Positions 3-23,325 of a stretch of DNA of 64,000 nt are shown here, piece after piece. A program made the position numbers and the translations under genes. Below the pieces are notes generated by a model that saw nothing but the letters and a program-made list of their open reading frames with translations, was not told the origin of the DNA and searched no databases. This DNA is from a virus. Taxonomy: Duplodnaviria; Caudoviricetes. Location: positions 1 to 64,000 of the IMG/VR virus record IMGVR_UViG_3300033120_000574; one strand, written 5' to 3'. Positions within the stretch are counted from its first letter, which is position 1, and every line of letters begins with the position of its first letter.

Positions 3-164
3 TATGTTGAGTTTACAGAGCGTAAATCTCATGACGCAGCACACAGGTCAGCGGGTTATCAACCATTGACAAACGAGGAGTGTATCAACCTTCTTGTGAA
101 GCATGCGGGTTACACTGACGAGCAAATAACGCTGCTTACTCTACAAACTGAGGTGCTACAATGA
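3..164 (+). CDS. Partial (5'-truncated) small protein with C-terminal LxLQxEx tag, module A
   Basis: Hand translation ends ...PLTNEECINLLVKHAGYTDEQITLLTLQTEVLQ*; ATGA overlap with the next ORF. Confidence 0.75.
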   Translation, partial: YVEFTERKSHDAAHRSAGYQPLTNEECINLLVKHAGYTDEQITLLTLQTEVLQ

Positions 165-331
165 ATTACTTAGGCTTGTTCATGAAACATGTACGTAGGT
201 CAGGTACACAGTACCCTGGTGAGATAAAGATGAGTGTAATTGCTAAGTATGTGTGGACTACAAAAGCAGTAACCTTTGTAGTTGAAGAGTTGAAACATGC
301 CCAACTTCAATATGAGTTGTCATGTGGTTAA
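161..331 (+). CDS. 56-aa tagged protein (not in ORF track)
   Basis: MNYLGLFMKH...EELKHAQLQYELSCG*; start overlaps the upstream stop. Confidence 0.75.
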   Translation: MNYLGLFMKHVRRSGTQYPGEIKMSVIAKYVWTTKAVTFVVEELKHAQLQYELSCG

Positions 332-570
332 GAATCCTTGAATTGTGGCTTTGGAAGAAACCAGGTCATGTACTTACTGTACAAGACGAGTATGGCACTA
401 TCTTCTTAGAAGTAGATGGATTTTGTCGGGTTCGTTGGGGTCTACTTGGAGCGCCTGATTGTGCTTTACCAGTAACAGAGTACCATGCTGAGAAGCTGGT
501 GAAGGTGTACATTCCAGAGGAAGAACACGAGCTGTTACAACTTAGCGTGGAGTTGCTCAATGCACAGTAA
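322..570 (+). CDS. Hypothetical tagged protein
   Basis: Ends EEEHELLQLSVELLNAQ. Confidence 0.8.
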   Translation: MWLRILELWLWKKPGHVLTVQDEYGTIFLEVDGFCRVRWGLLGAPDCALPVTEYHAEKLVKVYIPEEEHELLQLSVELLNAQ

Positions 571-1000
571 ACTTGACATCATAAAAATGGCCATAATCAA
601 CAAACTAGATACTGCAATAGCACATCACCTAAATCTTCGTGAAGAACAAGAAAAATACGTCTGCATTCAAGACAAGAATGGAAAGAAGCTATACATTAGC
701 TATGTGACATTAGACGTGAGCATCTTTGTTGCAAAAGAAGAATATTCAAGTACAGGCAAACCAACTAACGAGTTTTTCAATACCTTTCCAGTCTTTAATG
801 TCAACAGAATTTACAAAGATGCAATTCGCAACTGCATTGAGTCTGGTTGGATAAACATAAACAACCGGCACAGACACCGCCACCGCGCCCTCCACCGAGA
901 GCTCAGTTTCGGGCGAGGTCTTGTATTGTCAACAGCGCGGAGTATCCTTTCCCCAAAAGAATACAAACTCTTGTTGTTGCAACTGGAGATGCAGGCATGA
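560..1000 (+). CDS. Hypothetical tagged protein
   Basis: Ends LSPKEYKLLLLQLEMQA. Confidence 0.8.
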   Translation: MHSKLDIIKMAIINKLDTAIAHHLNLREEQEKYVCIQDKNGKKLYISYVTLDVSIFVAKEEYSSTGKPTNEFFNTFPVFNVNRIYKDAIRNCIESGWININNRHRHRHRALHRELSFGRGLVLSTARSILSPKEYKLLLLQLEMQA

Positions 1001-1374
1001 AGTCATTCCACTACCAGCACTTACTTGGACGTTATCTGTTCTCTTTAAAGAGTGGATACGGAACCCCAGCGTTTGACAGCGGTCAAAGACTTATTGCTCC
1101 TAACTGTGGAATACGTGTTAGCAGCAAAGTATCGCATCCAGACCAACTGTGCAGTGTTGAGATATTTACAGTATCAAAGGCATATCCGAAACCAGAAAAG
1201 AAACTGGTGTTTCATACACCCTTGCCAAGTGACTTCAGGTACCTTTATCCTACGGGTAATCCACACAGTTACCAAACGTTAAACGAAAAGAAGTGCTGCC
1301 AGTTCTTGCACTGTTTGTTTACTGTGGAGGAAATAGAAATGTTGCAACTCAAACTTGAATTAGTGGACGGTTGA
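997..1374 (+). CDS. Hypothetical tagged protein (start reassigned to ATG 997)
   Basis: ATGA overlap at 997-1000; ends KCCQFLHCLFTVEEIEMLQLKLELVDG. Confidence 0.8.
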   Translation: MKSFHYQHLLGRYLFSLKSGYGTPAFDSGQRLIAPNCGIRVSSKVSHPDQLCSVEIFTVSKAYPKPEKKLVFHTPLPSDFRYLYPTGNPHSYQTLNEKKCCQFLHCLFTVEEIEMLQLKLELVDG

Positions 1375-1377
1375 GCA

Positions 1378-1632
1378 ATGCAACAAGACAAAAAACCCCA
1401 CCAAAAGGCATTGGCAGCATACATTCTGTCCAAGCAGTTCTCCAATACCGATAGAACCCAAGATGTTGAAGTAAACGGAAAGCCATTGTGGGTCGGAGTC
1501 GCAACCAACTCAGTGTACATAGCTGGTGAGGGTGGACCACTAGATAATGAAAAGTGCAGGGAATTTCTAGTTCACTGCATCTCAAAAGAAGAACTCGAAA
1601 TATTGGAGCTACAATATGAACTCGATCAATGA
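1378..1632 (+). CDS. Hypothetical tagged protein
   Basis: Ends PLDNEKCREFLVHCISKEELEILELQYELDQ. Confidence 0.8.
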   Translation: MQQDKKPHQKALAAYILSKQFSNTDRTQDVEVNGKPLWVGVATNSVYIAGEGGPLDNEKCREFLVHCISKEELEILELQYELDQ

Positions 1633-1885
1633 CACTGGTGTGTATTACAAAGCACTGTTTAACTACGTTAAGAACTTTGGAACGTACACGGACAGGCGAG
1701 GCACGCGCGCTGGAGGAGTGCTCTCCGTAGACATTGGCGATCGGGTTATAACATTGTACGCAAACTCATTAGGTTGCGGAATGGGATACCTACTAACAAA
1801 TGTCGAATGCAGGGAGCACTTGTTGCTTGTCCTAACGCCAGAGTCGATGGAAATCTTGGACATTCAACACGAGCTTCAGCAATGA
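1616..1885 (+). CDS. Hypothetical tagged protein
   Basis: Ends LTNVECREHLLLVLTPESMEILDIQHELQQ. Confidence 0.8.
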   Translation: MNSINDTGVYYKALFNYVKNFGTYTDRRGTRAGGVLSVDIGDRVITLYANSLGCGMGYLLTNVECREHLLLVLTPESMEILDIQHELQQ

Positions 1886-2265
1886 TCTCAAAATACTATG
1901 ACTTGTTGGCAAAATACATTCAAGAACATGGCAAGACGCTCAAGTGTACCAGAGATCCTAATTCTGGTGTAATTCCTGAGTTGCCTGAGTTGCCAGAGCA
2001 TTACTTGGTCATTGAAACAAAAGAGTCATTGCACGACTGTGCGTGTGATAGATACGTGTTGCAAACCACAAAGCTAGATGAGTTTGGACTCAAGTATTGT
2101 CCTCCTATCTATGTGGACTACAACAACACAGACTCTTGGACCTACTTTCTGTTCCGAGGTAATGGTTCACACGAAAGAAGAGAAAAGGATGCACGAGCAT
2201 TATTGCTTCGCTTGTGTCCAGAAGAGCTAGCCATGCTGGAGCTACAGCTTGAGCTTGCTGCATGA
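1882..2265 (+). CDS. Hypothetical tagged protein (start reassigned to ATG 1882)
   Basis: ATGA overlap; ends LCPEELAMLELQLELAA. Confidence 0.8.
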   Translation: MISKYYDLLAKYIQEHGKTLKCTRDPNSGVIPELPELPEHYLVIETKESLHDCACDRYVLQTTKLDEFGLKYCPPIYVDYNNTDSWTYFLFRGNGSHERREKDARALLLRLCPEELAMLELQLELAA

Positions 2266-2548
2266 ATAAAATTCCTATGAACATCAAGCCGTCAAGTTAC
2301 CCAGCTTACTATGGAAAGGTGTACTACAACCTAGCCGTCAGGTACATAAACAAGCATGCAGATACATACGATGACATTCATGTCGAAGACAAGCATTACT
2401 GTATTCTAGGAACAGAAATACTAATCAACCAAGGCAAAGCAACTGGTGCAATCAACGGGTTGCATACAGTAAATGTAAAGAGTTGTGTGAGAAGTTACTT
2501 ACACAAGAAGAGCTACAACTACTTCAACTGCAAGAAGAATTAACTTAG
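2262..2548 (+). pseudogene. Frameshifted tagged protein (tag in the -1 frame)
   Basis: ORF 2262..2543 lacks the tag. The -1 frame from ~2470 reads KCKELCEKLLTQEELQLLQLQEELT* (stop 2546-2548) and has no ATG of its own. Confidence 0.75.
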
Positions 2549-2709
2549 ATCTGTAGCTAATGATCAAGAAGGATCTAATTCTTCTCTTTGATCAAACTTG
2601 ATACCCACCCAACCAATTAACCCATATCATCACGTCAGTAGAGATCTACAGTATTACAGTTGGCTTGTCAAGCTATAACGTTTGATACCCTGGTACAGGA
2701 GATAGGATC
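2548..2709. other. Non-coding GATC-rich intergenic region
   Basis: GATC at 2548, 2562, 2572, 2590, 2643 and 2706; imperfect inverted repeat 2561-2594. Confidence 0.5.
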
Positions 2710-2711
2710 CA

Positions 2712-2816
2712 ATGAACGAACCAGATGAAGTGGATAGCATTCCCATCTTCGATGAAGATGACTCTGAATATCTAGACCGCATTTACTTTACTGAGCAAAC
2801 TACGGAGCTACTGTGA
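2712..2816 (+). CDS. 34-aa acidic peptide
   Basis: MNEPDEVDSIPIFDEDDSEYLDRIYFTEQTTELL*; upstream AGGA; GTGA overlap with the next gene. Confidence 0.55.
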   Translation: MNEPDEVDSIPIFDEDDSEYLDRIYFTEQTTELL

Positions 2817-3820
2817 GCAAGAAATACAATTTTGATAACCGCTTAGACCGCCGAGGAAAGCCTACAAGGGCTTCAAACTACGAGACTGCACACCTCAAGG
2901 TTCCATGTGCTTGTGGGGCTCCTATCAAGCACAAAGGGCCACAGCTACACACGGTCACAGTGGTGTTTGATCGTCCAGCAATGTCTATCAAGACTGTTCG
3001 AGCCCAGTGTGCTGCAACTGCTGGGTTTGACGTAATTGCTGACTTGTCCCCTGACTTGCCAACTTGTGTTCGTTTTGCCAAAGCTTTGCTTACTGCAGCT
3101 ACTGAGGGAGGAACTAAAGAGTTTCAAATACTAGATGAACACAGTGACGAAAAGCGGATTGACACATATGGGGACCTGAAAGTTACATTTACATTGACTA
3201 GTTTGGTGCGTGCCTCAAATCTGGCAAACAATTTGCGAAATAGTTGGGACAGGCTACGAGACCTCCGAATTACAGAGAAAGAAAGTAAGAAGCCTGCAGC
3301 TGTTGCATTGAAACCACGTTTGTTGCAAAACTCATTTACTGCTTTTGTAAGTAAATCAATGCCATTCATTGATGACTGTGCAGCAGGCACATGTCCCCAC
3401 ACATACCCAGTGATTAATAACAACCATCTTGAGTTCACAGTTAGCATTGCGTACGATGGCTCACTTCAACTTTGCACAAACGGTGGTACAGTTGCTACAC
3501 AGCGTGTTGGACAGACTACATGGGTGGCAGACGATGACCGTGTATTGAGCTACTTTGGGTCACGTATTCACCCATGTGCGTATCCTGGCAACGTTAGTTA
3601 CAAACGAATAAACAAACAAAGTGTAGAAGCAAAAAGTGTTTACTGCTTCTTTTGCAAGCAGTCTTTTGAGAAGATTGACAAACATCTTGAAGGCGCTAAA
3701 CACTTGACTGCGGTAAAAAACTGGTTCTCACTCTTCTTGAAAGCCCACTCCTCAGCAGGCTTAAAGATGTTGAACAACCAAAAGTACAAACACATCTTCT
3801 TTCCTAATTTGGTGAAATAA
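2813..3820 (+). CDS. Hypothetical protein with C-terminal matrin/U1-type C2H2 zinc finger
   Basis: YCFFCKQSFEKIDKHLEGAKH pattern; also CxC near the N-terminus. Confidence 0.6.
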   Translation: MSKKYNFDNRLDRRGKPTRASNYETAHLKVPCACGAPIKHKGPQLHTVTVVFDRPAMSIKTVRAQCAATAGFDVIADLSPDLPTCVRFAKALLTAATEGGTKEFQILDEHSDEKRIDTYGDLKVTFTLTSLVRASNLANNLRNSWDRLRDLRITEKESKKPAAVALKPRLLQNSFTAFVSKSMPFIDDCAAGTCPHTYPVINNNHLEFTVSIAYDGSLQLCTNGGTVATQRVGQTTWVADDDRVLSYFGSRIHPCAYPGNVSYKRINKQSVEAKSVYCFFCKQSFEKIDKHLEGAKHLTAVKNWFSLFLKAHSSAGLKMLNNQKYKHIFFPNLVK

Positions 3821-3821
3821 C

Positions 3822-4421
3822 ATGCATTTTTGTCACGAAGAACTATTTCTCATTACCAGTGCAGCAGCGTTTGCAAAGCCAGCTTACTCTTACTTAAAAG
3901 GTAAGAGCTATTTGGTTGGACTTAGCTTGCTCGCTCTAGTCAACCTTGGATGTCCACGAAGAGGGGAGATGGACGTTCGCACAGACGCAGAAATGCCTGT
4001 CGCTGTTGATGCTGCAATGAGTACAACAGATGTATACGGAGCAGATGCACAAGTTACCCAGGAAGACGCAGATGCATTTGTTGGCACAGATGCTGCATTC
4101 ACCAATTGCCCAGAGCTGCCATCAACTGCAAGGTATCTATTTGCTTCAACTAACTGTGTAGCCCCTGTAAACACAATCACAGCCATCACAGTCACAGGAC
4201 GTACTGAGTTGGTTGATGGAATGTGTTACGCGGATATCTGGGTGCAGTCGGATACCTGTGGCGGTTCCTACTCCCTGCCTTGGTCACTTGGAGTGGACAG
4301 CTTCATGTTGCGTTGTGGTAGTGAACTTACGCAGTGCAGAATTCGTACCACGGAGGAAACACTAACCATGACATGCATCCAGAACGCAATACAGTGCACC
4401 ATGTTTTTTGACCACAGCTAA
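3822..4421 (+). CDS. Putative lipoprotein / exported Cys-rich protein
   Basis: Hydrophobic segment ending in lipobox-like VNLG-C, DA-rich linker, Cys-rich C-terminal domain. Confidence 0.55.
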   Translation: MHFCHEELFLITSAAAFAKPAYSYLKGKSYLVGLSLLALVNLGCPRRGEMDVRTDAEMPVAVDAAMSTTDVYGADAQVTQEDADAFVGTDAAFTNCPELPSTARYLFASTNCVAPVNTITAITVTGRTELVDGMCYADIWVQSDTCGGSYSLPWSLGVDSFMLRCGSELTQCRIRTTEETLTMTCIQNAIQCTMFFDHS

Positions 4422-4434
4422 GAATGGAACTTTC

Positions 4435-4851
4435 ATGACCGAATTCGTAATCACAGCGCCAGTCACAGTCACAGATTCAATAGAGGAAGCAAAGGCTTTC
4501 GTTGTTGAACAAAACCTTGAGTTACTTAAGACGCAGTATTCCATGCTTGTGGATCCTAATGCTTGCTTCACGAGTGAAGTTTGTGAAGCATTGGCTGAAG
4601 CTGGAATCCTAACCAAAGAACCTTCAACGTATGAGAAGCCTCCTACTGAGGTCGGAGGTGAACCCACCGTCATTCACTCATCGATCACTCTAAACGGTGT
4701 GAAGGTTAAGCTGTACAACTATTCCTGGTTGCACAAGGAACTTGCTACGCCCTCACAGTTTCTTTCACTGGCCTCTCCAGACTTACTTAAACAAGTAGCC
4801 TGGGATCTGCGTACGTTTCCAGCATTTTGTAATGTGGTGTCAAATGGCTAA
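4435..4851 (+). CDS. Hypothetical protein
   Basis: Long ORF in a coupled + strand run; start uncertain (4408 or 4435). Confidence 0.65.
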   Translation: MTEFVITAPVTVTDSIEEAKAFVVEQNLELLKTQYSMLVDPNACFTSEVCEALAEAGILTKEPSTYEKPPTEVGGEPTVIHSSITLNGVKVKLYNYSWLHKELATPSQFLSLASPDLLKQVAWDLRTFPAFCNVVSNG

Positions 4852-5440
4852 AACATTAGAAAAAAGAGTTGCCGAGGTTATAGCCCACGAAACTGATTGG
4901 ACAGCCCAAGTACTAAAGAGCAGAAAGAGTGAGCTTAAAAGAGGAAAGACAACAGAAAAGTTGGTGGAGCAGTTACAAGACAGAATTGAGACAGCTTCCG
5001 AGAAATGGTTTGACCAATTCTTTAATGGAGACCAGGAGTTAGTAACAACACAGATAGACAATGCTGTAAAAGCAAACCTGGACAACATGCTGGAGGAAGC
5101 TGTAAAATCAGCTACGGTTGGAACTGGTGGCTATGGGGGCGCTCCAAAACTGTTCAAGAGCAAGATTGATCCTATCCTGAACGAAGCAATTACAGAATCA
5201 TTTAAGGCTCTTGATTTGCCGTCTAAGATCAAAGCAGCCATAGCTGCACAAGAAGAAGCTATGCAGCTACACATAAACAATGTAGTATCAGATTACATAC
5301 GAAGAGAGCTGCACAATCTTTCTCGTTCATCAGAGGAACTGATCAAGGCGGCTATTGTAGCTCATCAAAGAAATACTTTGGAAACCTTTGAGGCACGCTT
5401 GAAGGGTATGCAAGAACTGATGAATGCAGGAAAAGGTTGA
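4844..5440 (+). CDS. Hypothetical helical/coiled-coil protein
   Basis: Ends RLKGMQELMNAGKG (possible class II tag). Confidence 0.7.
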   Translation: MAKTLEKRVAEVIAHETDWTAQVLKSRKSELKRGKTTEKLVEQLQDRIETASEKWFDQFFNGDQELVTTQIDNAVKANLDNMLEEAVKSATVGTGGYGGAPKLFKSKIDPILNEAITESFKALDLPSKIKAAIAAQEEAMQLHINNVVSDYIRRELHNLSRSSEELIKAAIVAHQRNTLETFEARLKGMQELMNAGKG

Positions 5441-5739
5441 ACATGAGTAAAGTATACACAGTCTACCAGTATTGCCGAGAGGGCATTGAGCGTGGCACGT
5501 TCTCCACGAAAAGTGCTGCATACGATTACGCATTCGAGTACATCAAAGAGACCGTCTTCTTCATCATTAGAAGCAAACTCTTCACAGCAAGCGAAGATGA
5601 CATGCTTCCATCTCTTGCAGAGAAGATAATGAAGATGGAGCCAAAGGAAGCTGTGCTGGCTTGGAATGCTTGGGCAGAGAAGAATACATACGGTGATGAT
5701 TACTACCTTGAAGTAGAGGAAGTTACTGTCAACCTTTGA
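5437..5739 (+). CDS. Hypothetical protein
   Basis: ORF track; coupled to the upstream stop. Confidence 0.7.
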   Translation: MNMSKVYTVYQYCREGIERGTFSTKSAAYDYAFEYIKETVFFIIRSKLFTASEDDMLPSLAEKIMKMEPKEAVLAWNAWAEKNTYGDDYYLEVEEVTVNL

Positions 5740-5829
5740 CAGTAACATCTTACCTGCTACACCTAACTTGTTCCTAAACGAAAACAAACAAACAACAACC
5801 AAACAACAACCAAACAAAAGAGAAAACAA
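5736..5829 (+). promoter_or_regulatory. Putative sigma70-like promoter and A/C-rich leader
   Basis: TTGACA at 5736; TTGACAGTAACA repeated at 13811; leader 5776-5829 is almost only A/C. Confidence 0.5.
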
Positions 5830-6219
5830 ATGGAAAATTCAGAAAATTCAGTTCACGACACGATCATTGCAGCACTTGAAGCAGAGAAGCAGGTTCACGA
5901 AGCACAGTTGAACTACGAGAATAAGCTTCAAGCAATCATCGCACAGAACGGTGGAGCAACCTTCGAGCACGAATCTCGTTGGTTCCAGATTCGTACACGT
6001 GATGATGGAGAGCGCCGTGTGTCCTACCTGTGCGCGTTGAAGGACAACCCCAAGAACTACCTTCGTGGTCGTCCAAAGGGTTCCGTGAACAAGAAGAAGC
6101 CAACGAGCTTGACTGATGTACCTACGTCAGTTACAGAACAGCTTACTGCGCTTGATGCAGCACTTCTAGCTGAGCAAGCAGTCGCCACGCCAGAGGGCAC
6201 CACAACTGTCATTGATTGA
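5830..6219 (+). CDS. Hypothetical protein with AT-hook-like RGRPKGS
   Basis: RGRPKGSVNKKK basic motif; possibly DNA binding. Confidence 0.65.
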   Translation: MENSENSVHDTIIAALEAEKQVHEAQLNYENKLQAIIAQNGGATFEHESRWFQIRTRDDGERRVSYLCALKDNPKNYLRGRPKGSVNKKKPTSLTDVPTSVTEQLTALDAALLAEQAVATPEGTTTVID

Positions 6220-6225
6220 GGATAA

Positions 6226-6468
6226 ATGTACAAGCATACGGTTAGTCACCAGGTTCAAGGCAAGCTAGTTGAAGTTTATAGTGAGACTCTTGAATCACGT
6301 GAGCCACAACAGCGGATTGTTGACCTACTAGACAATGTAGCCAGGACTACATTTGAGCGAGCAAATGGAGTTGAAGGTGGTTGCGCTTTCACTGCCATTG
6401 CTTACAAGGTTGACGATTCGCTTGAACACTACGTTCATCGAGGTTTCTTCCTAGATCAGTATAACTGA
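6226..6468 (+). CDS. Hypothetical protein
   Basis: GAGG ribosome-binding site upstream; ORF track. Confidence 0.65.
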   Translation: MYKHTVSHQVQGKLVEVYSETLESREPQQRIVDLLDNVARTTFERANGVEGGCAFTAIAYKVDDSLEHYVHRGFFLDQYN

Positions 6469-6480
6469 GTTTAAATTTCC

Positions 6481-6531
6481 TTGCAATGTGAACGCCTAGA
6501 CGGTATAAAAGCTGTTTAGGCGTTCACTGCA
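6481..6531 (+). promoter_or_regulatory. Sigma70-like promoter embedded in a 16-bp inverted repeat
   Basis: TTGCAA(6481)-17 nt-TATAAA(6504); arms GTGAACGCCTAGACGG / CTGTTTAGGCGTTCAC. Confidence 0.65.
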
Positions 6532-6541
6532 TTGGAGATAT

Positions 6542-7309
6542 ATGGCTAAAGATCCTGAGAAACAAGAGTTGTTGAAGAAGCTTGGCATTGAAGATACCAA
6601 GAAGAACTGGACTAAAGCGGAACTACAAGACCGTGTTCGTAGAATTGAAGAAGAAGCAAAAGCTAAAGAAGCGTTGAAGGCTAAGCTAGAACCAATCATG
6701 GGTGAGCTTCCCAAGGAAGCGCCAGCAGAAATGGAAATACCAGATAGCTTAGTTACTGCCGAAGACCCGTTCAATGGTTTGAGTGATCGCCAAAGAACAA
6801 TTGCTAGACTAAGACTTCGTAACATTTCTCAAGGTGCAATAGCTAAGTTACTTGGTGTAACCCAACCGCTAATCAGCGTAGAGCTTAAAGCCATCCGAGA
6901 GTGGCAGATAGCACGTGGTAAGAACGTAGACCAAGCAGCCGTTGTAGGCGCTGCCACAAGCATCTACGACGAAGTAGAGCACCAGGCTTGGCAGCTGTTC
7001 TATGACACCGAAGCACCCTCTGAGGACAAGTTTAAAGCGCTTGCATTAGTGATGCAGTCTCGTGAAAAGCAAACAAAGCTTATGATGGACCTTGGCCTAC
7101 TCAAGAAGGCAAGCCAAGAGATTACACATAAGTTAGAAGTCTCTCCTTTCCTAGAGAAGTGGAAATCTGGAGATGCAAAGAAATCATTTGGCGATACCAT
7201 TGTGAGTAGCCAGCTTACACCTTTGGCAGAGCCAACATTAGATATTGAAGACGCTGATATAGTCGAAGACACCAAACCGGAATCCGAGGAGGTTCCAGAA
7301 GACGACTAA
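6542..7309 (+). CDS. HTH DNA-binding protein (possibly terminase small subunit-like)
   Basis: LSDRQRTIARLRLRNISQGAIAKLLGVTQPLIS is an HTH; helical middle region, acidic tail. Confidence 0.6.
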   Translation: MAKDPEKQELLKKLGIEDTKKNWTKAELQDRVRRIEEEAKAKEALKAKLEPIMGELPKEAPAEMEIPDSLVTAEDPFNGLSDRQRTIARLRLRNISQGAIAKLLGVTQPLISVELKAIREWQIARGKNVDQAAVVGAATSIYDEVEHQAWQLFYDTEAPSEDKFKALALVMQSREKQTKLMMDLGLLKKASQEITHKLEVSPFLEKWKSGDAKKSFGDTIVSSQLTPLAEPTLDIEDADIVEDTKPESEEVPEDD

Positions 7310-7414
7310 ATGTTAGGTTTGTGGCGAAACATGTTGCATGACTACCTTTGTGCTGCTGACGAGGACAAAGAAGATGTGATCGCAATGATGCAGCTTAAAC
7401 AGGAGCTACGATGA
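7310..7414 (+). CDS. 34-aa tag-only peptide (not in ORF track)
   Basis: MLGLWRNMLHDYLCAADEDKEDVIAMMQLKQELR*; fills the gap exactly, with ATGA overlap. Confidence 0.7.
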   Translation: MLGLWRNMLHDYLCAADEDKEDVIAMMQLKQELR

Positions 7415-9916: not shown

Positions 9917-9917
9917 A

Positions 9918-13500: not shown

Positions 13501-13507
13501 GGTGCAT

Positions 13508-13807: not shown

Positions 13808-13810
13808 CAC

Positions 13811-13845: not shown

Positions 13846-13880
13846 CAGTTCGATAACCAACCATTTCTCGGAGACTAAAG

Positions 13881-14372: not shown

Positions 14373-14388
14373 GGCGAGTGATAGCGTA

Positions 14389-14453: not shown

Positions 14454-14471
14454 TTACTTTTAGGAGTTAAT

Positions 14472-15080: not shown

Positions 15081-15081
15081 C

Positions 15082-16008: not shown

Positions 16009-16712
16009 CTACTGTGTATGACCTGCTCGAAAAAGAGAAGGAATTGTGGGCACTGTGCAAGACACACCTTGTAAATCAACGAAGGTCATCTAGGTATTTT
16101 TGTCCTTTTTGCAAAGAGATGTTGCTTGAACACAACGACTTCTACTCCTACAACACAAGTAATGCGAAGCGGTACGGACATTACCAATTTAAGATTGATT
16201 CCATTAAGAACCACATGAACGCTCACAAATCTGTAGAGTGTTCATGTGGTAAGTTGTTTAAGAGGCAAGAAGAGAAGATTGCACATATGGTCAAACCTGT
16301 GTGCAAAGACCGTACCGTAATCAAGCAGGTTCTAGACCAAGGCTATGTAGATAGTAGGCACGTTCAACTGTTAGAAGACTGTTTGCAAGCACTTCACTTT
16401 GAAATTTCCGACGATGAAAACACTTGGAATGAAGTACAAGAAGCATACACTGAGGCGAAGAATAACCTGCCTGCACAACTAGGTGCTATCAAGATTCCAA
16501 CGAGGAATCGCCTATACCAAGGCTGGTACACAAAGCCAGAGACGGCTGCACTGCTGCGTGGTGTGTTTGAGAGTCAAGCAAATATGGCTGCTAGGTCCAC
16601 TACCGACCCATATGCAGCACAAAAACTGCTGTACGAAGCACATTACATACTAGCTGCATCTAGAGAAGAGAAAGATAGCTTTCTTTGCATGCTAGAGCTT
16701 AGAAAAGGTTGA
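16005..16712 (+). CDS. Zinc-finger protein paralog, class II tag
   Basis: CPFC...HMNAH; CSCGKLF...H...C; ends EEKDSFLCMLELRKG. Confidence 0.75.
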   Translation: MTTVYDLLEKEKELWALCKTHLVNQRRSSRYFCPFCKEMLLEHNDFYSYNTSNAKRYGHYQFKIDSIKNHMNAHKSVECSCGKLFKRQEEKIAHMVKPVCKDRTVIKQVLDQGYVDSRHVQLLEDCLQALHFEISDDENTWNEVQEAYTEAKNNLPAQLGAIKIPTRNRLYQGWYTKPETAALLRGVFESQANMAARSTTDPYAAQKLLYEAHYILAASREEKDSFLCMLELRKG

Positions 16713-16713
16713 T

Positions 16714-17397
16714 ATGCCTACTCCTCCAGATCATCCACTGCAATCACAGATACGTGAGCTAAGTAAGAATCTAGCTACAACAACTAAACATGCACAATTA
16801 GTTTGCAGGCGTTGTCCAGTAACTTGGGAAATGCCCCGTGAATTTTATTCGCCGTCTGATTCTCTTGGGGAAACAGCAATAGTAAATCTGTTGGAGTTTG
16901 TCACAAAGCTAACCGTACACTTGACTACTGCACACAAACTGCATGTGTGCAGCTGTGGCGGTGCTTTCTCAAATGTGGGTGGTGTGCGAAAATGCAATAC
17001 AAGTGAAACATGCAAAAATAGTACACAAAAAAAGGAATTTGAAAAGATTGGCTATCGTGCTGTTGCATTCGCACCCACGATGTTAAACGCCACTAAGTAT
17101 AACGACTTAGTGTCTAGATTTAAGAATACGTTTGAAGTCAAAGAATTGCCTGTACCAACCTTTATGTTTGGGAGGTGGTTTGTACCTAACCACATTGCAG
17201 ACAGGCTCGATTTCCTGCACTATAAAGCACACAGGAGCACCCAAGACTGGGAACTCAATGCGGAATATACCGGGTACGGGGCTAAAGGAAATCCTAAAAA
17301 GGAAGCGTATATCGCGGACTTGGAAGTGTTAATTAACACCATAAACGAAGACTGGAATCTGGTCCTCGCAATGTTTGAACTCAGGGAGAAACAATGA
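16714..17397 (+). CDS. Zinc-finger protein paralog, class II tag
   Basis: CRRC...HLTTAH; CSCGGAF...C; ends DWNLVLAMFELREKQ. Confidence 0.75.
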   Translation: MPTPPDHPLQSQIRELSKNLATTTKHAQLVCRRCPVTWEMPREFYSPSDSLGETAIVNLLEFVTKLTVHLTTAHKLHVCSCGGAFSNVGGVRKCNTSETCKNSTQKKEFEKIGYRAVAFAPTMLNATKYNDLVSRFKNTFEVKELPVPTFMFGRWFVPNHIADRLDFLHYKAHRSTQDWELNAEYTGYGAKGNPKKEAYIADLEVLINTINEDWNLVLAMFELREKQ

Positions 17398-17696
17398 CTA
17401 CTGTACTTGGTTTGTTTGTAGTTGCAACGATGATGTATTTTGGAGCAAAGGCTGCAATATATTTGAAGTCGTTGGTTAAGAAAGAACATGAAATTACTGA
17501 CCATGTTCTTAACGAATATGACAAAATTGTTAAGAGACGAGATGAGATGATCCACGGTTTGCTTGTGGATCAGTTTGCAGACCTACGTAAAGCGTTGATA
17601 CTTGTAGACACTCACACCATTCGTGACGCAGCTGACCTTGCTGATGTTGCACGTAAATGCCTACACAACTATGACAAGGTGCGCAATGGAGTTTGA
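17394..17696 (+). CDS. Small membrane-anchored protein
   Basis: N-terminal hydrophobic helix. Confidence 0.65.
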   Translation: MTTVLGLFVVATMMYFGAKAAIYLKSLVKKEHEITDHVLNEYDKIVKRRDEMIHGLLVDQFADLRKALILVDTHTIRDAADLADVARKCLHNYDKVRNGV

Positions 17697-17901
17697 GTAT
17701 ACACATAAACCTTTGTTCAAGGTTAGTTTTAACCACTTTACCTTGATCAAAGAACCTAAAGGCGAGATTGATCCAAATGCACCTACTTGGTGCTTTTTCG
17801 ATACCAAGCATCCAAGTGTCTACTTTGCTGAAACACTTCCAAAGCTAGTAAAAGAAGTAGTACTTAACTGGCGTAAAGACCACACGATTGTAGGATACTG
17901 A
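17686..17901 (+). CDS. Hypothetical protein
   Basis: MEFEYTHK... in a coupled run; start uncertain. Confidence 0.55.
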   Translation: MEFEYTHKPLFKVSFNHFTLIKEPKGEIDPNAPTWCFFDTKHPSVYFAETLPKLVKEVVLNWRKDHTIVGY

Positions 17902-17902
17902 G

Positions 17903-18442
17903 ATGAAGAAGAATACAATAAAAGCAATGACAAGTTCTGTGAATGAACACTGGAACACGCCAGAGTCTATTATTGATCCTATGGTGGCTAGGTTTGGACA
18001 GGTAACTCTTGACCCTTGTTCAAACTCAACAAGCATTGTCAATGCAAAGCAAATCTATACAGGGCCGGATGCTGGTGGCTTGGACGGCTTAGCGGAGACT
18101 TGGCAAGTCAACGGACTAGTGTTTGCTAACACACCTTATGGACGCAAGATTCGACTGTGGACAAAGAAGATAGCTATTGAGGCTGCATTGGCTAGGAAGT
18201 CTTACCTTGCGGATCCAGAGATTGTTCCAACTGAGATTATCTTCCTCGGACCAGCACGTACAGACACAAAGTACTTTCAAGAGGACATCTGCCCAACAGC
18301 CGACTCTGTGTGCCTTCTAAAAGGTCGTCTAGTCTTCCGTGGTGCTCCAAGCACTGCGTTGTTTCCGAGCTTCCTGGCGTACTGGGGACCGCGTCCTATG
18401 GAATTTAAGCTTGCCTTCTTGGGCATGGGTTGGTTTATGTGA
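17903..18442 (+). CDS. Phage DNA N6-adenine methyltransferase (phage Dam family)
   Basis: WNTP, LDPC, DGL..W, VFANTPY (NPPY-like), PARTDT.YF, KGRL.F. Confidence 0.85.
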   Translation: MKKNTIKAMTSSVNEHWNTPESIIDPMVARFGQVTLDPCSNSTSIVNAKQIYTGPDAGGLDGLAETWQVNGLVFANTPYGRKIRLWTKKIAIEAALARKSYLADPEIVPTEIIFLGPARTDTKYFQEDICPTADSVCLLKGRLVFRGAPSTALFPSFLAYWGPRPMEFKLAFLGMGWFM

Positions 18443-18822
18443 GTATGGTGTCTTCATTGCTACAGGATGCTTTGCAGCTGGATCGCGCTATTGAAGACGC
18501 CATAGTGCTTGTGTACCCACCCAAACCGTTTAGAGCAAAAGCAGTACTTGCCCTGTTGGTAAGCAGCACGCCATGGCTTCCTCATCCATTCACAATTAGT
18601 GAAATTACATCGCCAAACGTATTGACACGTATGCTTAACGCACCTTCTCTTCCAGAGGCTATACATGTGACAGAGGGTCAACGCGAAGCATTGACCGAAC
18701 TTGGACCTGCTTTTTGTGAAGTGTACACATGCAGCGTGCAAGACGAGATAGCTTTGTTGAAGATTCTTTTCAACAAAGAAATACCTGAGATCCTTCAACT
18801 TCAACTAGAGTTACAACAATGA
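18439..18822 (+). CDS. Tagged protein, module C
   Basis: Ends CSVQDEIALLKILFNKEIPEILQLQLELQQ. Confidence 0.8.
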   Translation: MSMVSSLLQDALQLDRAIEDAIVLVYPPKPFRAKAVLALLVSSTPWLPHPFTISEITSPNVLTRMLNAPSLPEAIHVTEGQREALTELGPAFCEVYTCSVQDEIALLKILFNKEIPEILQLQLELQQ

Positions 18823-19175
18823 GTATTGTATCCCCTATATTATTTGAAGCTTTGGGAGCAGAGGAAGTGCTCCTAGCATTTCCGTTTAGCCAAGGATCAG
18901 CATTAGGAATAATACTTCATTGCTATTTACCTAGAGCAATTCCAACTCATGTTGGAGTTATTAGATCACCAACTGTTTTAGCTGGTGTTCGTACGTACTC
19001 GGATAGTATAATAGAGCTAGGCAAGGAACAAGCCGAAGCTGTGTGTTTACTGATGGACACACGAAATAAAGAGTTTCGTGAATGTAGCGTAAGGGATGAA
19101 GCTGACTTACTAAAGATCTTGTTTGATCAAAGCCTTCCAGAGCAGATTCAACTTCAACTAGAGTTACAGCAATGA
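18819..19175 (+). CDS. Tagged protein, module C paralog
   Basis: Ends CSVRDEADLLKILFDQSLPEQIQLQLELQQ. Confidence 0.8.
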   Translation: MSIVSPILFEALGAEEVLLAFPFSQGSALGIILHCYLPRAIPTHVGVIRSPTVLAGVRTYSDSIIELGKEQAEAVCLLMDTRNKEFRECSVRDEADLLKILFDQSLPEQIQLQLELQQ

Positions 19176-19516
19176 CACCAGAAAGAATGCATAGCTGGAT
19201 TAAACGTAAACTAAGTTTAGAGCATTTGCATAATGCTTGGCCTGCGACGCCCGCTGCCACGTATGGGACTAGGAACACACAAGTCACAGTAATCACTCCA
19301 TATTCAACATCGTTTGTCATAGACGTTTTGGACAAGCATTATCGAGGTAATTTTCGTGAAATAACCACGGAGCAAGCGGATGCTTTACGCAGCATTACGA
19401 AAGAACATATGTCTTCATTTGAAGCGTCAACCAAAGAAATGATGAAGATCGTTGAGATCATTACAGGCAAACCGATCCCAAAGAAGCTTCAACTTCAAAT
19501 AGAGCTAGGACATTAA
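19172..19516 (+). CDS. Tagged protein, module C paralog
   Basis: Ends ITGKPIPKKLQLQIELGH. Confidence 0.8.
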   Translation: MTPERMHSWIKRKLSLEHLHNAWPATPAATYGTRNTQVTVITPYSTSFVIDVLDKHYRGNFREITTEQADALRSITKEHMSSFEASTKEMMKIVEIITGKPIPKKLQLQIELGH

Positions 19517-19517
19517 A

Positions 19518-19697
19518 ATGACGAAAACAACAGATATCACAGTCCCTGCAGCCTTTGCTAAGATGGCATACGATTACGCTTGGGAAGCGTATGTTACCTC
19601 TTGCCTAACGCAAGGTGTAGAGGTAACAAGTAAAGAAAGCGAATACATGAAGTGGGATGACAAGGACCAAAAATTTGTAAAGCAGTTTACGAAGTAA
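19518..19697 (+). CDS. 59-aa hypothetical protein (not in ORF track)
   Basis: MTKTTDITVP...KFVKQFTK*; followed by a terminator. Confidence 0.6.
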   Translation: MTKTTDITVPAAFAKMAYDYAWEAYVTSCLTQGVEVTSKESEYMKWDDKDQKFVKQFTK

Positions 19698-19716
19698 CTT
19701 GTTTTGATGGTTGAAT

Positions 19717-19748
19717 AGCGGCTTAGGAAACTAGGCCGCTTTTCTTTT
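19717..19748 (+). terminator. Intrinsic terminator
   Basis: AGCGGCTTAG-GAAA-CTAGGCCGCT followed by a T-tract. Confidence 0.85.
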
Positions 19749-19756
19749 GGAGACAT

Positions 19757-20053
19757 ATGGAAGAGAAATTAACACAGCTGCAGTTGCTCATGGAAGTTTG
19801 TGAAGATGCTGAAAAGCTAAGTGCTATCAAGTTCATTGAAGAGCAAGAAGACCTAATCGAGAAGTCAGCGCTTGTAGCCTTGCACGTCGATGAGTGTTCG
19901 ACTTCAAGTTACAACTGCGCTATATGCTCTAAGTACAGGTGCCACTATTGCGGGAAACAAGAGTTGGATCGTAGTGAAGATGAGCCTTGCGAAGAATGTC
20001 AAGCCGACTTTCGCCAACAGGAAATGAACGATTACTATGGCCACACGTACTAA
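19757..20053 (+). CDS. Small Cys-rich zinc-binding protein
   Basis: CxxC pairs; begins MEEKLTQLQLLMEV. Confidence 0.7.
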   Translation: MEEKLTQLQLLMEVCEDAEKLSAIKFIEEQEDLIEKSALVALHVDECSTSSYNCAICSKYRCHYCGKQELDRSEDEPCEECQADFRQQEMNDYYGHTY

Positions 20054-20849
20054 CATGAAACAAATTCCTCCACGCAGATACACAGGCACTCGTAGAGTTG
20101 TAGAGGCCCGAGTTGCAGCTATGGAGGAACTGGCACTGCGTGGAAACTCTCAACACACTACGATACAGCACAGGGCTATGAATGAAGCACTTTTTATAGC
20201 AACGGGCTACAAACGCCTCACTGAAGAAGTGAAAAACAAGTGCACTGAGTTAGGTATCCTTACGCCACAAACTAAGCGTACAACGTATCAAGCAGTGAAA
20301 GACAAGAAGGAAGCTAAGTCACATGTACGGTATCGTACAGGGGGACGTGTGGGAAGACAAAACAAGCCAAAAGAAAACTGCTTACTGTGTAGTAAACTTC
20401 ACAAATCTCGACAGTGCCCGCTTACTAAAGACTGGGTAGACCTGTCCGACCCAGACACAAGTTATTCCGTGTTTGAACCCAGTGCTTGCACCTACTGGAA
20501 ACGTGAGGACTTCTTAAATAGCGTCTTCAGTGCAATTCTTTCTAATAGCTTTCGTGGTGGTAAAACTAGGGAAGAAGCAACAGGTTTGGAACAAGAGTGG
20601 AAGTTTGCGTGTGATACCTTTGCTGTCTTTGGAGACATTGGTGTGTTTGCGTTTGCTAAGAATGCAACACGTTTGGTGTATGTCTCGACTAGGTGTATGC
20701 AGTTTGCTGTTGCATGCAAAGATTACCAAGTGTTTCGGTGTATTGCACGCTCTGATCACGAGTTATCGTTGAAGCTGCAGTGCTTCAAAGAACACTACAT
20801 TCTTGGTGAAGACAATCTTCTTGGCCTTTTTGAATTGGGTAGAATGTGA
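20037..20849 (+). CDS. Hypothetical protein with CxxC-H-C zinc knuckle, class II tag
   Basis: CLLCSKLHKSRQC; ends EDNLLGLFELGRM. Confidence 0.7.
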   Translation: MATRTNMKQIPPRRYTGTRRVVEARVAAMEELALRGNSQHTTIQHRAMNEALFIATGYKRLTEEVKNKCTELGILTPQTKRTTYQAVKDKKEAKSHVRYRTGGRVGRQNKPKENCLLCSKLHKSRQCPLTKDWVDLSDPDTSYSVFEPSACTYWKREDFLNSVFSAILSNSFRGGKTREEATGLEQEWKFACDTFAVFGDIGVFAFAKNATRLVYVSTRCMQFAVACKDYQVFRCIARSDHELSLKLQCFKEHYILGEDNLLGLFELGRM

Positions 20850-21343
20850 AAAACATACATGAGATTGCCGCTGCTAACTTAGCAAAGTTCACTGCGCAAA
20901 GATACACGTTCTTAAGCAACAACGTGATACTTAGTCAATCTGTAAAAAACTTGCTAGAACGAGCAAGAAAAGAAGGGTCAAATTACAGAGGGGATGGACC
21001 CAACGAGTATTGGTGGGACATTGCAAAAGCGTTGAAGGAACAACAAGGACCATTAACAGGGGAAGATGGTTACGTGTATCGTACGGACATCACGAACTTA
21101 TGTGTAGTTGGACGTGACGTGGAAGTAAGAGAACACTTTTCAACTGGTGAACTACTTCTAGCTAAACGCAGCATGATTCCTGCTTGGCTTAATCCCTTGC
21201 CTGTGTATTTGCGGTTCGGCATTCAAGGACCAAGTGATTACGATCACCTCTTAGAAGCGACAATAGCTGCCTTGCGAGGAGACTTGGATATGATTGAAAA
21301 CATCTTTGGTTGTTACGAGTTGATGCGAGAAGCTGCTCAATGA
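20846..21343 (+). CDS. Hypothetical protein, class II tag
   Basis: Ends MIENIFGCYELMREAAQ. Confidence 0.7.
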   Translation: MKNIHEIAAANLAKFTAQRYTFLSNNVILSQSVKNLLERARKEGSNYRGDGPNEYWWDIAKALKEQQGPLTGEDGYVYRTDITNLCVVGRDVEVREHFSTGELLLAKRSMIPAWLNPLPVYLRFGIQGPSDYDHLLEATIAALRGDLDMIENIFGCYELMREAAQ

Positions 21344-21642
21344 ACTGGGCTGTCTTCAAAGAAAAGTACGCTTGGCTTATAAAGAGCACTTCAAATTCAG
21401 ATGCATTTTACGTAACATGCCCTAAAAGGCAGATAACGTTAGTCTATTATGACCAGCTGGGGCGCGTAGCAAAACGTGCTTTTGAGGACATAGAATATGA
21501 GCACCTGTGTTTTGAATCCTTCGATGTGCATTATGCAAAAGCGTACTACCTGTACATATATGAGGATGGCTTTGACGAAGACGCAGTGAAGGCTTTTGAC
21601 GTTTGTCTTGAGCAATTTCAACTTATGAACGAGTTACAATGA
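21340..21642 (+). CDS. Tagged protein, module D
   Basis: ATGA start; ends AFDVCLEQFQLMNELQ. Confidence 0.8.
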   Translation: MNWAVFKEKYAWLIKSTSNSDAFYVTCPKRQITLVYYDQLGRVAKRAFEDIEYEHLCFESFDVHYAKAYYLYIYEDGFDEDAVKAFDVCLEQFQLMNELQ

Positions 21643-21983
21643 CTGCAGAAGACTTTTACGATAGATATAAGCATTTGCTTATGTCCAGACTTTTTCCTCG
21701 TTGGAGCGTTGGCCCTGATCTGGGAATTAACCACAATAGAATTGTGTGTACTTGGTTCGACAACAATGGGTTTGGGGACGAAAACTTAGTAGCTGGTCAA
21801 GCAGAACTTGTTGCAAAGGTGTTCGGTGACCTACCCAAGAACACATCCTGCTTTTACTTAGAAGCAGAGACAGGAGTTACTACTCTGACTATCTTCTTCA
21901 ACGCTTTTGCAGGCAAGTTACAAGAGGAATTTGACGTAGCTTTGGAAAAGCTACAGTTAATGCACGAGCTAAGCAATGAGTAA
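21639..21983 (+). CDS. Tagged protein, module D
   Basis: Ends EFDVALEKLQLMHELSNE. Confidence 0.8.
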   Translation: MTAEDFYDRYKHLLMSRLFPRWSVGPDLGINHNRIVCTWFDNNGFGDENLVAGQAELVAKVFGDLPKNTSCFYLEAETGVTTLTIFFNAFAGKLQEEFDVALEKLQLMHELSNE

Positions 21984-22193
21984 ACCTTTGATGTCAGCTA
22001 AAACCTTTTTAAGGTTGAATTCACATTCAATACTGCCCCCACCAACCCACCACCATTTAGCTTACAAGGTACTTTGGACGTGGGATAATTCCTTGGCCGA
22101 GGACTACGCGGATCGTAATTACGAGCTTTACGAAAAACAAAAGATTACCTTTCCCATAATATATATAATTTCCTAACGAAAGAACTACAATGA
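21976..22193 (+). pseudogene. Possible frameshifted array member
   Basis: ORF stops at 22176. The -1 frame reads KDYLSHNIYNFLTKELQ*, ending in an ATGA overlap with the next gene. Confidence 0.45.
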
Positions 22194-22486
22194 GAGCATC
22201 CGCCGTTTGGAAAAAAGCCGTATGGTTGCAGCCCTATTGTAATGAATACAAAGACGATCTAATATCCTATGGGTTTGGTAGCGGTAGGTTGCGTGTGTTT
22301 AACATAATGTATCCTGTGTTTAGAGAAAAGCATTACGTGGAATTCTCAACAAACACTTCAACGGAGTGTGTTGCTGATTGGCAGATGTTCATCACTTTCC
22401 ACACAGAGTTCATGACAGAGCAGGACTTAGAGTTGCTTGTAGAAACTATGAACATACTCCAACTTAGACGAGAGCTTGAGCCATGA
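22190..22486 (+). CDS. Tagged protein, module D
   Basis: Ends LVETMNILQLRRELEP. Confidence 0.75.
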   Translation: MRASAVWKKAVWLQPYCNEYKDDLISYGFGSGRLRVFNIMYPVFREKHYVEFSTNTSTECVADWQMFITFHTEFMTEQDLELLVETMNILQLRRELEP

Positions 22487-22803
22487 CCAAAGAAGAGTTT
22501 TACGCAAGGTATGATGTAGGCAACAATATTGTACGTAATTATCCATTTACGGACAAAGACGAAGGTATTGCAGGATGGCATCTATACGCGCATTTACAGC
22601 AACAGGAGCATATGGATAAGCTGCGCAGCTTATTGAAAGAGCAAGGAAAGACGGACAGTGCGGATCTCAGTTGGCCATCAGGCTATCAAAACCATTTGTA
22701 TAGCTGCTTTAGAGTAAGCATAGCGTCTTTCACTGCTGAGCAAGCTGACCGACTAGACGAAGTGATGTTGCAGTGGCAACTGTATAGAGAGCTAATTCAA
22801 TGA
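22483..22803 (+). CDS. Tagged protein, module D
   Basis: Ends LDEVMLQWQLYRELIQ. Confidence 0.8.
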   Translation: MTKEEFYARYDVGNNIVRNYPFTDKDEGIAGWHLYAHLQQQEHMDKLRSLLKEQGKTDSADLSWPSGYQNHLYSCFRVSIASFTAEQADRLDEVMLQWQLYRELIQ

Positions 22804-23048
22804 GTAAGCGTCCACGATACTCATGTGTATACTTATCTAGGTACTTCAAAGAGGATGACACTACAGAAGAAGAGTATACGTATGGTCCGCATGCAGTACA
22901 TGTGTGGGATCCACAAAAGGATTATTGGGTGTGCAGAGACTGCCAATCTACATACCAAGAAAACACTGAGACGTTCGTAGAGGGTGAACGTCTCAAAATG
23001 GCACAACTACAATACGAGCTGCGCAGTGAGCAAAGAGATCAAGATTAA
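22800..23048 (+). CDS. Tagged small protein with H/CxxC motif
   Basis: HVWD...WVCRDC (similar to 10708); ends LKMAQLQYELRSEQRDQD. Confidence 0.75.
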   Translation: MSKRPRYSCVYLSRYFKEDDTTEEEYTYGPHAVHVWDPQKDYWVCRDCQSTYQENTETFVEGERLKMAQLQYELRSEQRDQD

Positions 23049-23325
23049 AGCTGTCATAATGAGAATTAACTTGCACTTCAGCAAACACAAGTTCTATCCA
23101 CAAATGTTGTTACTTGGGGAAAAAGGTAAATACAAAGTTACATCTCTGTACATTAGTGCAACAAAGATTCAAATTCGCAGAACCGACTGTGCACCTGTTG
23201 CAGTTGGAGAGATTGTAGATTTGCTTAATAGTACAGAGGAGTACATAGACTTTATATTGAACCAAGTCTATCCAGACTTCAATCTTGAAGTGTTTCAACT
23301 CCAGCAAGAACTCATAGGAACGTAA
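23026..23325 (+). CDS. Tagged protein, module B; last gene of the + strand arm
   Basis: Ends VYPDFNLEVFQLQQELIGT; GTG start inferred. Confidence 0.75.
   Translation: MSKEIKIKAVIMRINLHFSKHKFYPQMLLLGEKGKYKVTSLYISATKIQIRRTDCAPVAVGEIVDLLNSTEEYIDFILNQVYPDFNLEVFQLQQELIGT

Follow-up and report, generated by a model that had tools for sequence, protein, structure and literature searches.

The first 64,000 nucleotides of the virus record IMGVR_UViG_3300033120_000574 (Duplodnaviria; Caudoviricetes), here called the window, encode a large set of small, mostly dissimilar proteins that share one short C-terminal element. The single IMG/VR record is 139,128 bp long, is classed as linear and has a CheckV completeness of 82%. 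Bases 1-23,330 form a compact block of approximately 60 small genes on the plus strand, and nearly all of the remaining genes lie on the minus strand. Tagged proteins make up about half of this plus strand block at the start of the record. We refer to the proteins with a QLQxEL tail as type-2, to those with the tail h-L-[GAC]-h-[LFWY]-E-L (h, hydrophobic) as type-1, and to those ending in W-D-L-stop as a third set. ATGA or short-overlap coupling between consecutive genes is found throughout the arrays, as a preliminary description of the window, made by reading the sequence without database searches, had proposed.

The shared motif is real, clean and far beyond chance. Its strict core, QL[QKMRSY]xEL, is present within the last 16 residues of 19 open reading frames (ORFs), compared with a mean of 0.012 and a maximum of 2 in 1000 residue shuffles, and there are just two internal matches in 45,207 residues. 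When all six-frame ORFs of the full 139-kb sequence were scanned with a profile built from 24 tails, 25 ORFs were recovered at E <= 5e-4, the best nonmember having E = 0.27. All 25 are inside the window, 24 of them at 3-23325 on the plus strand and one at 60934-61299 on the minus strand. Every motif instance listed in the preliminary description was found in place, and its list was correct as far as it went; three more instances are present, QLQYEL at 7840-7974, QLQYEL at 22800-23048 and QLQEEL at 2375-2548.

The type-2 genes of the plus strand begin at the very edge of the record, where the first member has lost its 5' end (3-164, tail TLQTEV-LQ, profile E 2.6e-8). It is followed by members recognized by both motif and profile at 161-331 (QLQYEL-SCG), 322-570 (QLSVEL-LNAQ), 997-1374 (QLKLEL-VDG), 1616-1885 (DIQHEL-QQ) and 1882-2265 (ELQLEL-AA), by a weak member at 560-1000 (LLQLEM-QA, profile E 4.8e-4) and by the best profile match at 1378-1632 (ELQYEL-DQ, E 1.7e-12). 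At 2262-2548 the ATG-initiated ORF (2262-2543) is in one frame and the profile-matching module with its QLQEEL-T end is in the frame of 2375-2548, so that this gene is either a frameshifted family member or an assembly error. A second array starts with a minimal member of 34 amino acids (7310-7414, QLKQEL-R) and continues with 7411-7719 (QLQQEL-QP), 7716-7974 (QLQYEL-TDALH) and 7961-8428 (QLQIEL-GNK). The last of these is coupled to a HerA-like ATPase gene (8425-9771) that lies inside the tag arrays and is directly followed by another member at 9764-9916 (QLQREL-KE). Related contigs were retrieved through this HerA-like gene, and one of them, the near-identical L005, comes from a Logan assembly. 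Comparison with L005 identified 7716-7974 as a member split by a one-nucleotide insertion: the extra A in GGAGAAAGG interrupts the gene, and its counterpart (L005 1536-1793) is an intact ORF of 85 amino acids. Further downstream are a member with a CxxC head at 10681-10989 (QLQEEL-KS), three members at 18445-18822 (QLQLEL-QQ), 18819-19175 (QLQLEL-QQ) and 19172-19516 (QLQIEL-GH), and a final group at 21340-21642 (QLMNEL-Q), 21639-21983 (QLMHEL-SNE), 22190-22486 (QLRREL-EP), 22483-22803 (QLYREL-IQ), 22800-23048 (a second CxxC head, QLQYEL plus eight residues) and 23059-23325 (QLQQEL-IGT). The sole minus strand type-2 member, at 60934-61299 (QLQFEL-QQ), is located between a cobS-like and a cobT-like gene.

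What is conserved is considerably more than the seven-residue tag originally described; that tag is a genuine C-terminal element, but it is the end of a helical module of about 25-35 residues, preceded by heads of 0 to about 120 residues. Numbering from the Glu residue (position 0), which is invariant in 35 nonredundant tails, hydrophobic residues recur at -8, -6, -5, -3 and +1, and at -1 in 49% of the 35 tails; acidic residues recur at -10 and -7, and Gln at -4 and -2. A turn rich in Pro, Ser and Thr is found at about -12, with a second amphipathic stretch upstream of it from -21 to -13. The pattern of the last helix is h-E-h-h-Q-L-Q-x-E-L. There are one to three residues after the Glu-Leu in 31 of the 35 tails and exactly two in 20, and these residues are variable and mostly polar (QQ, AA, DG, GNK, KE, EP, IQ and others). 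The module is predicted to be a helix-turn-helix. In the AlphaFold2 (AF2) model of the type-1 protein encoded at 15082-16008, helices span residues 268-287 and 290-306 with a predicted local distance difference test (pLDDT) score of 80-88, the whole-model mean being 66; in that of the type-2 protein 18445-18822 they span residues 98-109 and 115-123 at a pLDDT of about 60-68, with a mean of 52. The hydrophobic positions of the last helix do not occupy a single face, as had been supposed, but make two stripes (-8/-5/-1 and -6/-3/+1), separated in the predicted helix by a conserved ridge of polar residues (Glu-7, Gln-4, Glu0). The 34-residue member 7310-7414 consists of the module alone. A 98-residue protein encoded at 13204-13500 on the plus strand carries the motif at its N terminus (EIEQLQHELG) and is conserved in L005 (7755-8066), which indicates that the motif is portable.

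The module does not belong to any family that we could recognize. Searches with 20 tagged proteins were empty, 10 members giving no Pfam-A hit at E < 0.04 and 10 tagged proteins no PHROG hit; the module profile had a best E of 0.23 against PDB sequences, which is not significant, and Foldseek searches with the type-1 model against PDB, BFVD and VIA-wide returned generic helical matches only (Z < 8). Look-alikes of 7961-8428 in the ESM Atlas did not exceed 0.79. A co-fold of two 40-residue copies of the module (alignment A1), made to look for self-association, scored 0.02 with an uncertain fold of the module, a value that counts neither way on binding. The tails also lack the marks of two known classes. 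An ssrA- or MuA-type ClpX degron would need conserved last two to three residues beside the free carboxylate, which are not present after the Glu-Leu. The proteins are not WXG100-like type VII secretion substrates, which an FtsK-like ATPase reads through a W-x-G in the hairpin turn and a YxxxD/E signal: alignment A1 has no W-x-G or YxxxD/E column, and the HerA-like protein matches P-loop segments only.

At the sequence level, the heads are unrelated and only the end is common. When the last 36 or so residues of 19 members were removed, the best head-to-head comparison scored 20.4 bits, within the range of the maxima of 20 shuffles (16.5-21.9), and a leave-one-out profile of the 50 residues preceding the tag recovered close paralogs only. 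The N-terminal dissimilarity noted in the preliminary description is thus upheld at this level, sequence comparison detecting homology outside the module in close pairs only.

Selection acts on the amino acids of the module. The Leu at +1 is encoded by TTA in seven cases, CTA in six, TTG and CTT in three each, CTC in two and CTG in one; the Leu at -3 likewise uses six codons, and TTR and CTN codons alternate at both positions. In the comparison of the window with L005, the ratio of nonsynonymous to synonymous differences per site (pN/pS) is 0.17 in the last 32 residues, where pS is 0.18, and it is 0.43 in the heads and 0.18 in untagged neighbouring genes. The heads are therefore under purifying selection and represent real coding sequence that evolves faster than its neighbours. 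A variable head joined to a constant C-terminal element under peptide-level selection, as first proposed, is borne out by the codons, the head comparisons and pN/pS together.

The peptide is not the only constraint, and peptide and nucleotide constraints both act on the tag. The earlier argument from synonymous variation is valid for Leu(+1) with its six codons, but certain codons are overused in the tags: CAA in 31 of 36 cases against a background of 59%, CTT in 12 of 23 against 26%, and GAG in 18 of 24 against 45%. GAG outnumbers GAA by 16:1 where the next ATG begins 8-11 nucleotides after the Glu codon, and the ratio is 2:5 otherwise (Fisher p = 0.0027). Shine-Dalgarno-like words upstream of 99 other genes of the phage peak at -13 to -8, and the GAG excess arises because the Glu codon sits in the Shine-Dalgarno position of the coupled next gene. 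The typical gene end, GAG-YTN-NNN-NNA-TGA, is at once Glu-Leu-x-x-stop, Shine-Dalgarno sequence and start of the next gene, and the same coupling accounts for the exactly two residues that follow Glu-Leu in so many tails. Type-1 tails place the Glu-Leu 18-25 nucleotides from the next start, beyond the Shine-Dalgarno position, which argues that the ribosome-binding role was superimposed on a conserved peptide and is not its cause; Glu is also retained, as GAA, where a Shine-Dalgarno sequence is not needed. A small RNA hairpin (AACTT/GAGTT) was considered as the cause of the conservation and rejected, since only the members whose Leu codons are TTR can form it.

The QLQxEL form is a lineage-specific, fast-turnover multigene family. 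In a profile search for the module among 1.84 billion representative proteins, every protein recovered was identical, or almost so, to one of the window or of L005, and 15082-16008 and alignment A2, when used as queries in word-indexed homologue searches, returned the near-identical relative only. L005 aligns with window positions 6.5-24 kb at 85-99% DNA identity (89-99% in all but two of the 13 aligned blocks), and within this 17 kb the two differ by at least six insertions, deletions or replacements of whole genes, mostly of tagged genes. An extra tagged gene in L005 has on both sides the same 41 nucleotides of tag-coding sequence, in direct repeat; the window contains them once, at the end of 7411-7719. 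The gene 19172-19516 is missing from L005, and the deletion junction is within the tag. The position of repeat and junction in tag-coding sequence indicates that the shared sequence also acts as a recombination site. Three other tagged genes take the place of 22483-22803 in L005, and most of the type-1 gene 20846-21343 (window 20842-21234) is without a match there. A 548-nucleotide insertion (L005 5122-5670, at window position 10923) splits the L005 counterpart of 10681-10989 into two ORFs.

More distant relatives, with 60-73% identity in the HerA-like protein, have no QLQxEL tails and instead carry h-L-[GAC]-h-[LFWY]-E-L followed by two to eight residues. This type-1 tail is also found on five larger proteins of the window with a Cys/His zinc-finger-like pattern, encoded on the plus strand at 15082-16008 (tail ILGCLEL), 16005-16712 (FLCMLEL), 16714-17397 (VLAMFEL), 20037-20849 (LLGLFEL) and 20846-21343 (IFGCYEL). 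The type-1 proteins of 15082-17397 and 20037-20849 share the zinc-finger-like arrangement CxxC...H....H....C.CG...H..S..CK, for which Pfam, PHROG and fold searches gave no match. The relative L001 has an expansion of its own, with eight copies of an ILGILELR end behind (Gly-Asn/Asp/Tyr)n repeats, which supports the independent expansion in relatives that the preliminary description had proposed to look for. Identity among the copies is 89-96% over the module and 61-74% over the repeats. In the tailed proteins of L001 at 98-1316, 6801-7671 and 9035-9457, approximately 85 residues of Gly-Asn/Asp/Tyr dipeptide repeats precede a near-identical C-terminal module of 50 residues. In G001, a complete 169-kb relative with direct terminal repeats, tailed genes are located at the genome end and inside the repeat. 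Some phages keep their host-takeover genes at their termini, and by analogy this suggests that the tailed genes are early genes.

The third set, with W-D-L-stop tails, is represented in the window by two minus strand genes, 39966-40424 and 62336-62773, and, at the opposite extremity of the record, by six tandem proteins at 135607-138837 (minus strand), equivalent to L010 608-3838. The 13 nucleotides of the W-D-L junction at the same time give the following gene its Met-Gly-Ser-Met start. Similar tails recur in G001 (EWDLL, EWSLLD, TDWDLS) and in L002 (STWDLF).

The phage itself is, by sequence comparison, far from cultured ones. The record had no DNA match to cultured phages by megablast, its HerA-like protein had no match to them by tblastn, and its terminase is 25-30% identical to its best matches among known phages. 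A scan of genome contigs for the HerA-like protein matched no bacterial genome and so gave no clue to the host. The minus strand encodes an intein-bearing terminase, ThyX, RecA, a family-A DNA polymerase, a primase, a gp32-like single-stranded DNA-binding protein and SbcCD, together with a cobS-like MoxR AAA+ ATPase and a cobT-like von Willebrand factor A (VWA) protein. Inteins, some with LAGLIDADG or HNH domains, are present in the terminase, ThyX, RecA and the polymerase, which has two (24785-27013, 41907-43739, 48808-51252 and 52793-57301, all on the minus strand). Directly upstream of the second tag array, 6542-7309 (plus strand) encodes a conserved 255-residue protein with a very acidic C-terminal tail, a segment of which looks, by eye, like a helix-turn-helix of the sigma region 4 type. 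In window positions 1-20000, one strong terminator-like hairpin is present, at 19717-19740 (plus strand).

We think that the module is best explained as a shared handle for protein-protein docking, through which exchangeable heads would be attached to a single partner, a reading to which we assign a probability of roughly 0.45-0.5. Each protein is an unrelated head of 0-120 residues joined to a C-terminal module of about 25-35 residues with two predicted helices, the last of which, h-E-h-h-Q-L-Q-x-E-L, ends one to three residues before the stop. A single third party, of phage or host origin, would read the common surface of the module. The variable heads would do the work, or bind the targets, of what would be early proteins for host takeover or anti-defence. 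The polar ridge and the two Leu stripes are alike in about 30 co-encoded proteins, and this fits a third-party partner better than self-association. The Glu codon in its Shine-Dalgarno position fixes the motif two codons before the ATGA overlap, and genes are gained, lost and swapped among near-identical phages, with junctions inside the tag-coding sequence.

Gene context points to two candidate partners encoded by the phage, the HerA-like ATPase and the cobS/cobT-like pair of MoxR AAA+ and VWA proteins. Tagged genes lie on either side of the HerA-like gene, and translational coupling links it to both. The cobS-like MoxR AAA_5 gene (61278-62339, minus strand) is flanked by the WDL-tailed gene 62336-62773 and the QLQFEL-tailed gene 60934-61299, and the cobT-like CobT_C/VWA protein (58979-60811, minus strand) has an intact DxSxS MIDAS motif (MIDAS, metal-ion-dependent adhesion site), DHSGS. 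No CobN was found in the record. The WDL-tailed neighbour of the cobS-like gene is conserved in G001, where gene order around cobS is partly conserved; the tagged gene between cobS and cobT is not, and other genes are found there. Precedents for docking on such machines exist, and they are analogies linked to our phage by gene neighbourhood. The extreme C terminus of NorD docks on the NorQ AAA+ ring and needs its very last hydrophobic residues to do so (PMC13036017), and in CobS-CobT-CobN the last two helices of CobN domain VI adjoin the MIDAS site of CobT (bioRxiv 10.64898/2026.07.21.739949). The phage resembles these systems in that its genes include one for a MoxR ATPase (cobS-like) and one for a VWA protein with a MIDAS (cobT-like), and in that two tail-bearing genes flank cobS. 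It differs from NorQ-NorD in that the last one to three residues of type-2 tails are variable and mostly polar; the final residue of the WDL tails is hydrophobic. One speculative proposal, which we consider improbable, is that the phage's own cobS/cobT-like motor, which has no CobN client, reads both the Glu-Leu and the Trp-Asp-Leu tails as address labels. If it were true, some 30 early proteins would be clients or adaptors of one ATP-driven remodelling machine, and the otherwise puzzling cobS/cobT genes of large phages would gain a function.

Several observations weigh against the docking handle. No partner was found, and no binding was seen with any of the tools used. The overly uniform use of CAA, CTT and GAG indicates that conservation of the tag is partly at the nucleotide level, through Shine-Dalgarno use, gene conversion or recent copying; the GAG rule is itself weaker in L005, where 4 of 12 tags in Shine-Dalgarno position have GAA. 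The folds of the heads were judged on two AF2 models with mean pLDDT values of 66 and 52, so a shared head structure may still exist, and the ESM Atlas model of 7961-8428 is poor (pLDDT 0.39). Early expression is deduced from gene position, and sigma-70-like promoters are not enriched in window positions 1-20000 (11 sites, compared with 27.8 +/- 5.6 in shuffles), a result that lends no support to early promoters for the host RNA polymerase. Alignments with hhalign of type-2 with type-1 tails, and of the WDL family with the 18445 group, were not significant, and consequently a single superfamily of QLQxEL, type-1 and WDL tails cannot be claimed.

The tagged proteins could instead be an ordinary but very fast-diverging paralog family descended from one small gene, in which the C-terminal helices are the most constrained part of a common fold and have no shared partner. 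Homology does extend beyond the module in subfamilies (18445/18819 at full length, 1378/1616 and 10681/22800), duplication and deletion drive the turnover of genes in the tandem arrays, and helix 244-259 of the AF2 type-1 model packs with the last two helices into a three-helix bundle. Once the module is removed, however, no pairwise score rises above shuffles, and the leave-one-out profiles reach close paralogs only. Head length varies from 0 to about 120 residues, the heads include CxxC types and the Gly-X repeats of L001, and the invariant polar Gln, Gln and Glu suit a binding surface more than a structural core. We regard this origin as unlikely, though as the first of the alternatives. 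Pairing of the terminal helix hairpins as four-helix bundles, to form homo- or hetero-oligomers among the members, would make sense of the two hydrophobic stripes on the last helix, of a 34-residue member that cannot fold alone, and of the generic structural matches to helix-hairpin docking domains such as the class 2 docking domain of polyketide synthases (PKS) (4myy, Z 6.4). The same interface residues in about 30 co-encoded proteins would nevertheless cross-pair indiscriminately, the interfaces of self-associating paralogs usually diverge, and no positive evidence for self-association was obtained; it seems to us rather improbable.

The strict placement near the C terminus, with one to three residues after the Glu-Leu in 31 of 35 tails, the occurrence on many unrelated proteins and the FtsK/HerA-like ATPase gene embedded in the arrays could also be understood if the tag were a terminal signal, either a degron setting when early proteins are removed or a label for localization, export or virion loading. 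Against a signal stand the variable, polar residues at the very end, which do not resemble those of ssrA or MuA, the Shine-Dalgarno/ATGA coupling, which explains how far the tag is from the stop, the N-terminal copy (13204-13500), and the placement of the tagged genes in a block whose strand is opposite to that of the structural genes. The preliminary description had entertained roles in recruitment to an AAA+ protease, in export or in virion loading, and nothing in the analysis speaks for them, the variable last residues opposing a ClpX- or ssrA-type end signal in particular; a terminal signal of any kind strikes us as quite improbable. The codon bias to CAA, CTT and GAG, the use of GAG in Shine-Dalgarno position and the indel junctions within the tag invite the view that a functionless peptide is the by-product of a nucleotide-level junction cassette, comprising a CAA-rich leader without structure, GAG as the Shine-Dalgarno and the ATGA overlap, that is copied by recombination. 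The pattern of synonymous change largely refutes this: Leu is kept through TTR/CTN switches at both positions, Glu is kept as GAA where no Shine-Dalgarno is required, module pN/pS is 0.17 at a pS of 0.18, and the type-1 Glu-Leu is 18-25 nucleotides from the next start. Such a by-product is very improbable. Finally, the tag might be a bacterial beta-clamp-binding motif that sends the proteins to the host sliding clamp. That motif is reportedly QLxLxL or QL[SD]LF (attributed to Dalrymple 2001 and Wijffels 2004), clamp-binding motifs are often at the extreme C terminus, and QLQLEL, QLKLEL and QLQIEL fit QLxLxL by eye. Position 4, which is required to be hydrophobic (along with 5 or 6), is so in only 49% of the 35 tails, the invariant Glu at position 5 has no counterpart, the tail is predicted to be helical and not extended, and no sliding-clamp gene was found in the phage record. 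Clamp binding has the slightest chance of all the explanations considered.

A constant docking element on variable proteins is already known as a principle; the QLQxEL family is new. No paper describing such a tail was found, and the preliminary description was right that no described system has this tag, in so far as the Pfam, PHROG and PDB-sequence searches produced no matching family. A close parallel in organization is provided by the poxvirus ankyrin/PRANC (F-box-like) and similar viral multigene families, which have a constant C-terminal adaptor domain; its partner in poxviruses, Skp1/SCF, is known. They too combine many heads, paralogous or unrelated, with one short helical C-terminal domain, have expanded in a lineage-specific manner and have their genes near genome ends. 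There is no sequence or fold relationship, and here the virus is bacterial and the heads are not repeat proteins. The PKS class 2 C-terminal docking domains resemble the module as two-helix C-terminal elements appended to diverse bodies, with a structural match (4myy) in the generic helical range; however, a PKS context is absent, and a complementary N-terminal docking element was not found here. The beta-clamp motif has in common with the tag the Gln-Leu start, the C-terminal position and the presence on many unrelated proteins, and differs in its conserved hydrophobic position 4, in the absence of an invariant Glu and in not being a predicted helix. Address peptides such as the capsid-targeting sequence of T4 internal proteins, encapsulin cargo-loading peptides and the SspB XB tail are short terminal peptides on unrelated proteins with one reader. 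Their motifs are different, and the window tags have no encapsulin gene or prohead-protease context; the tagged genes are separate from the structural genes, which the other strand encodes.

In large phages, small early genes without an assigned function number in the dozens, and in this phage about half of one such block has a single handle. One short sequence answers to three constraints at once: it is kept as a peptide, it serves the next gene as ribosome-binding site, and recombination at it drives gene gain and loss. If one partner reads the handle, then that partner would be a hub of host takeover, and approximately 30 proteins that are now orphans would belong to a single system whose heads can be exchanged.

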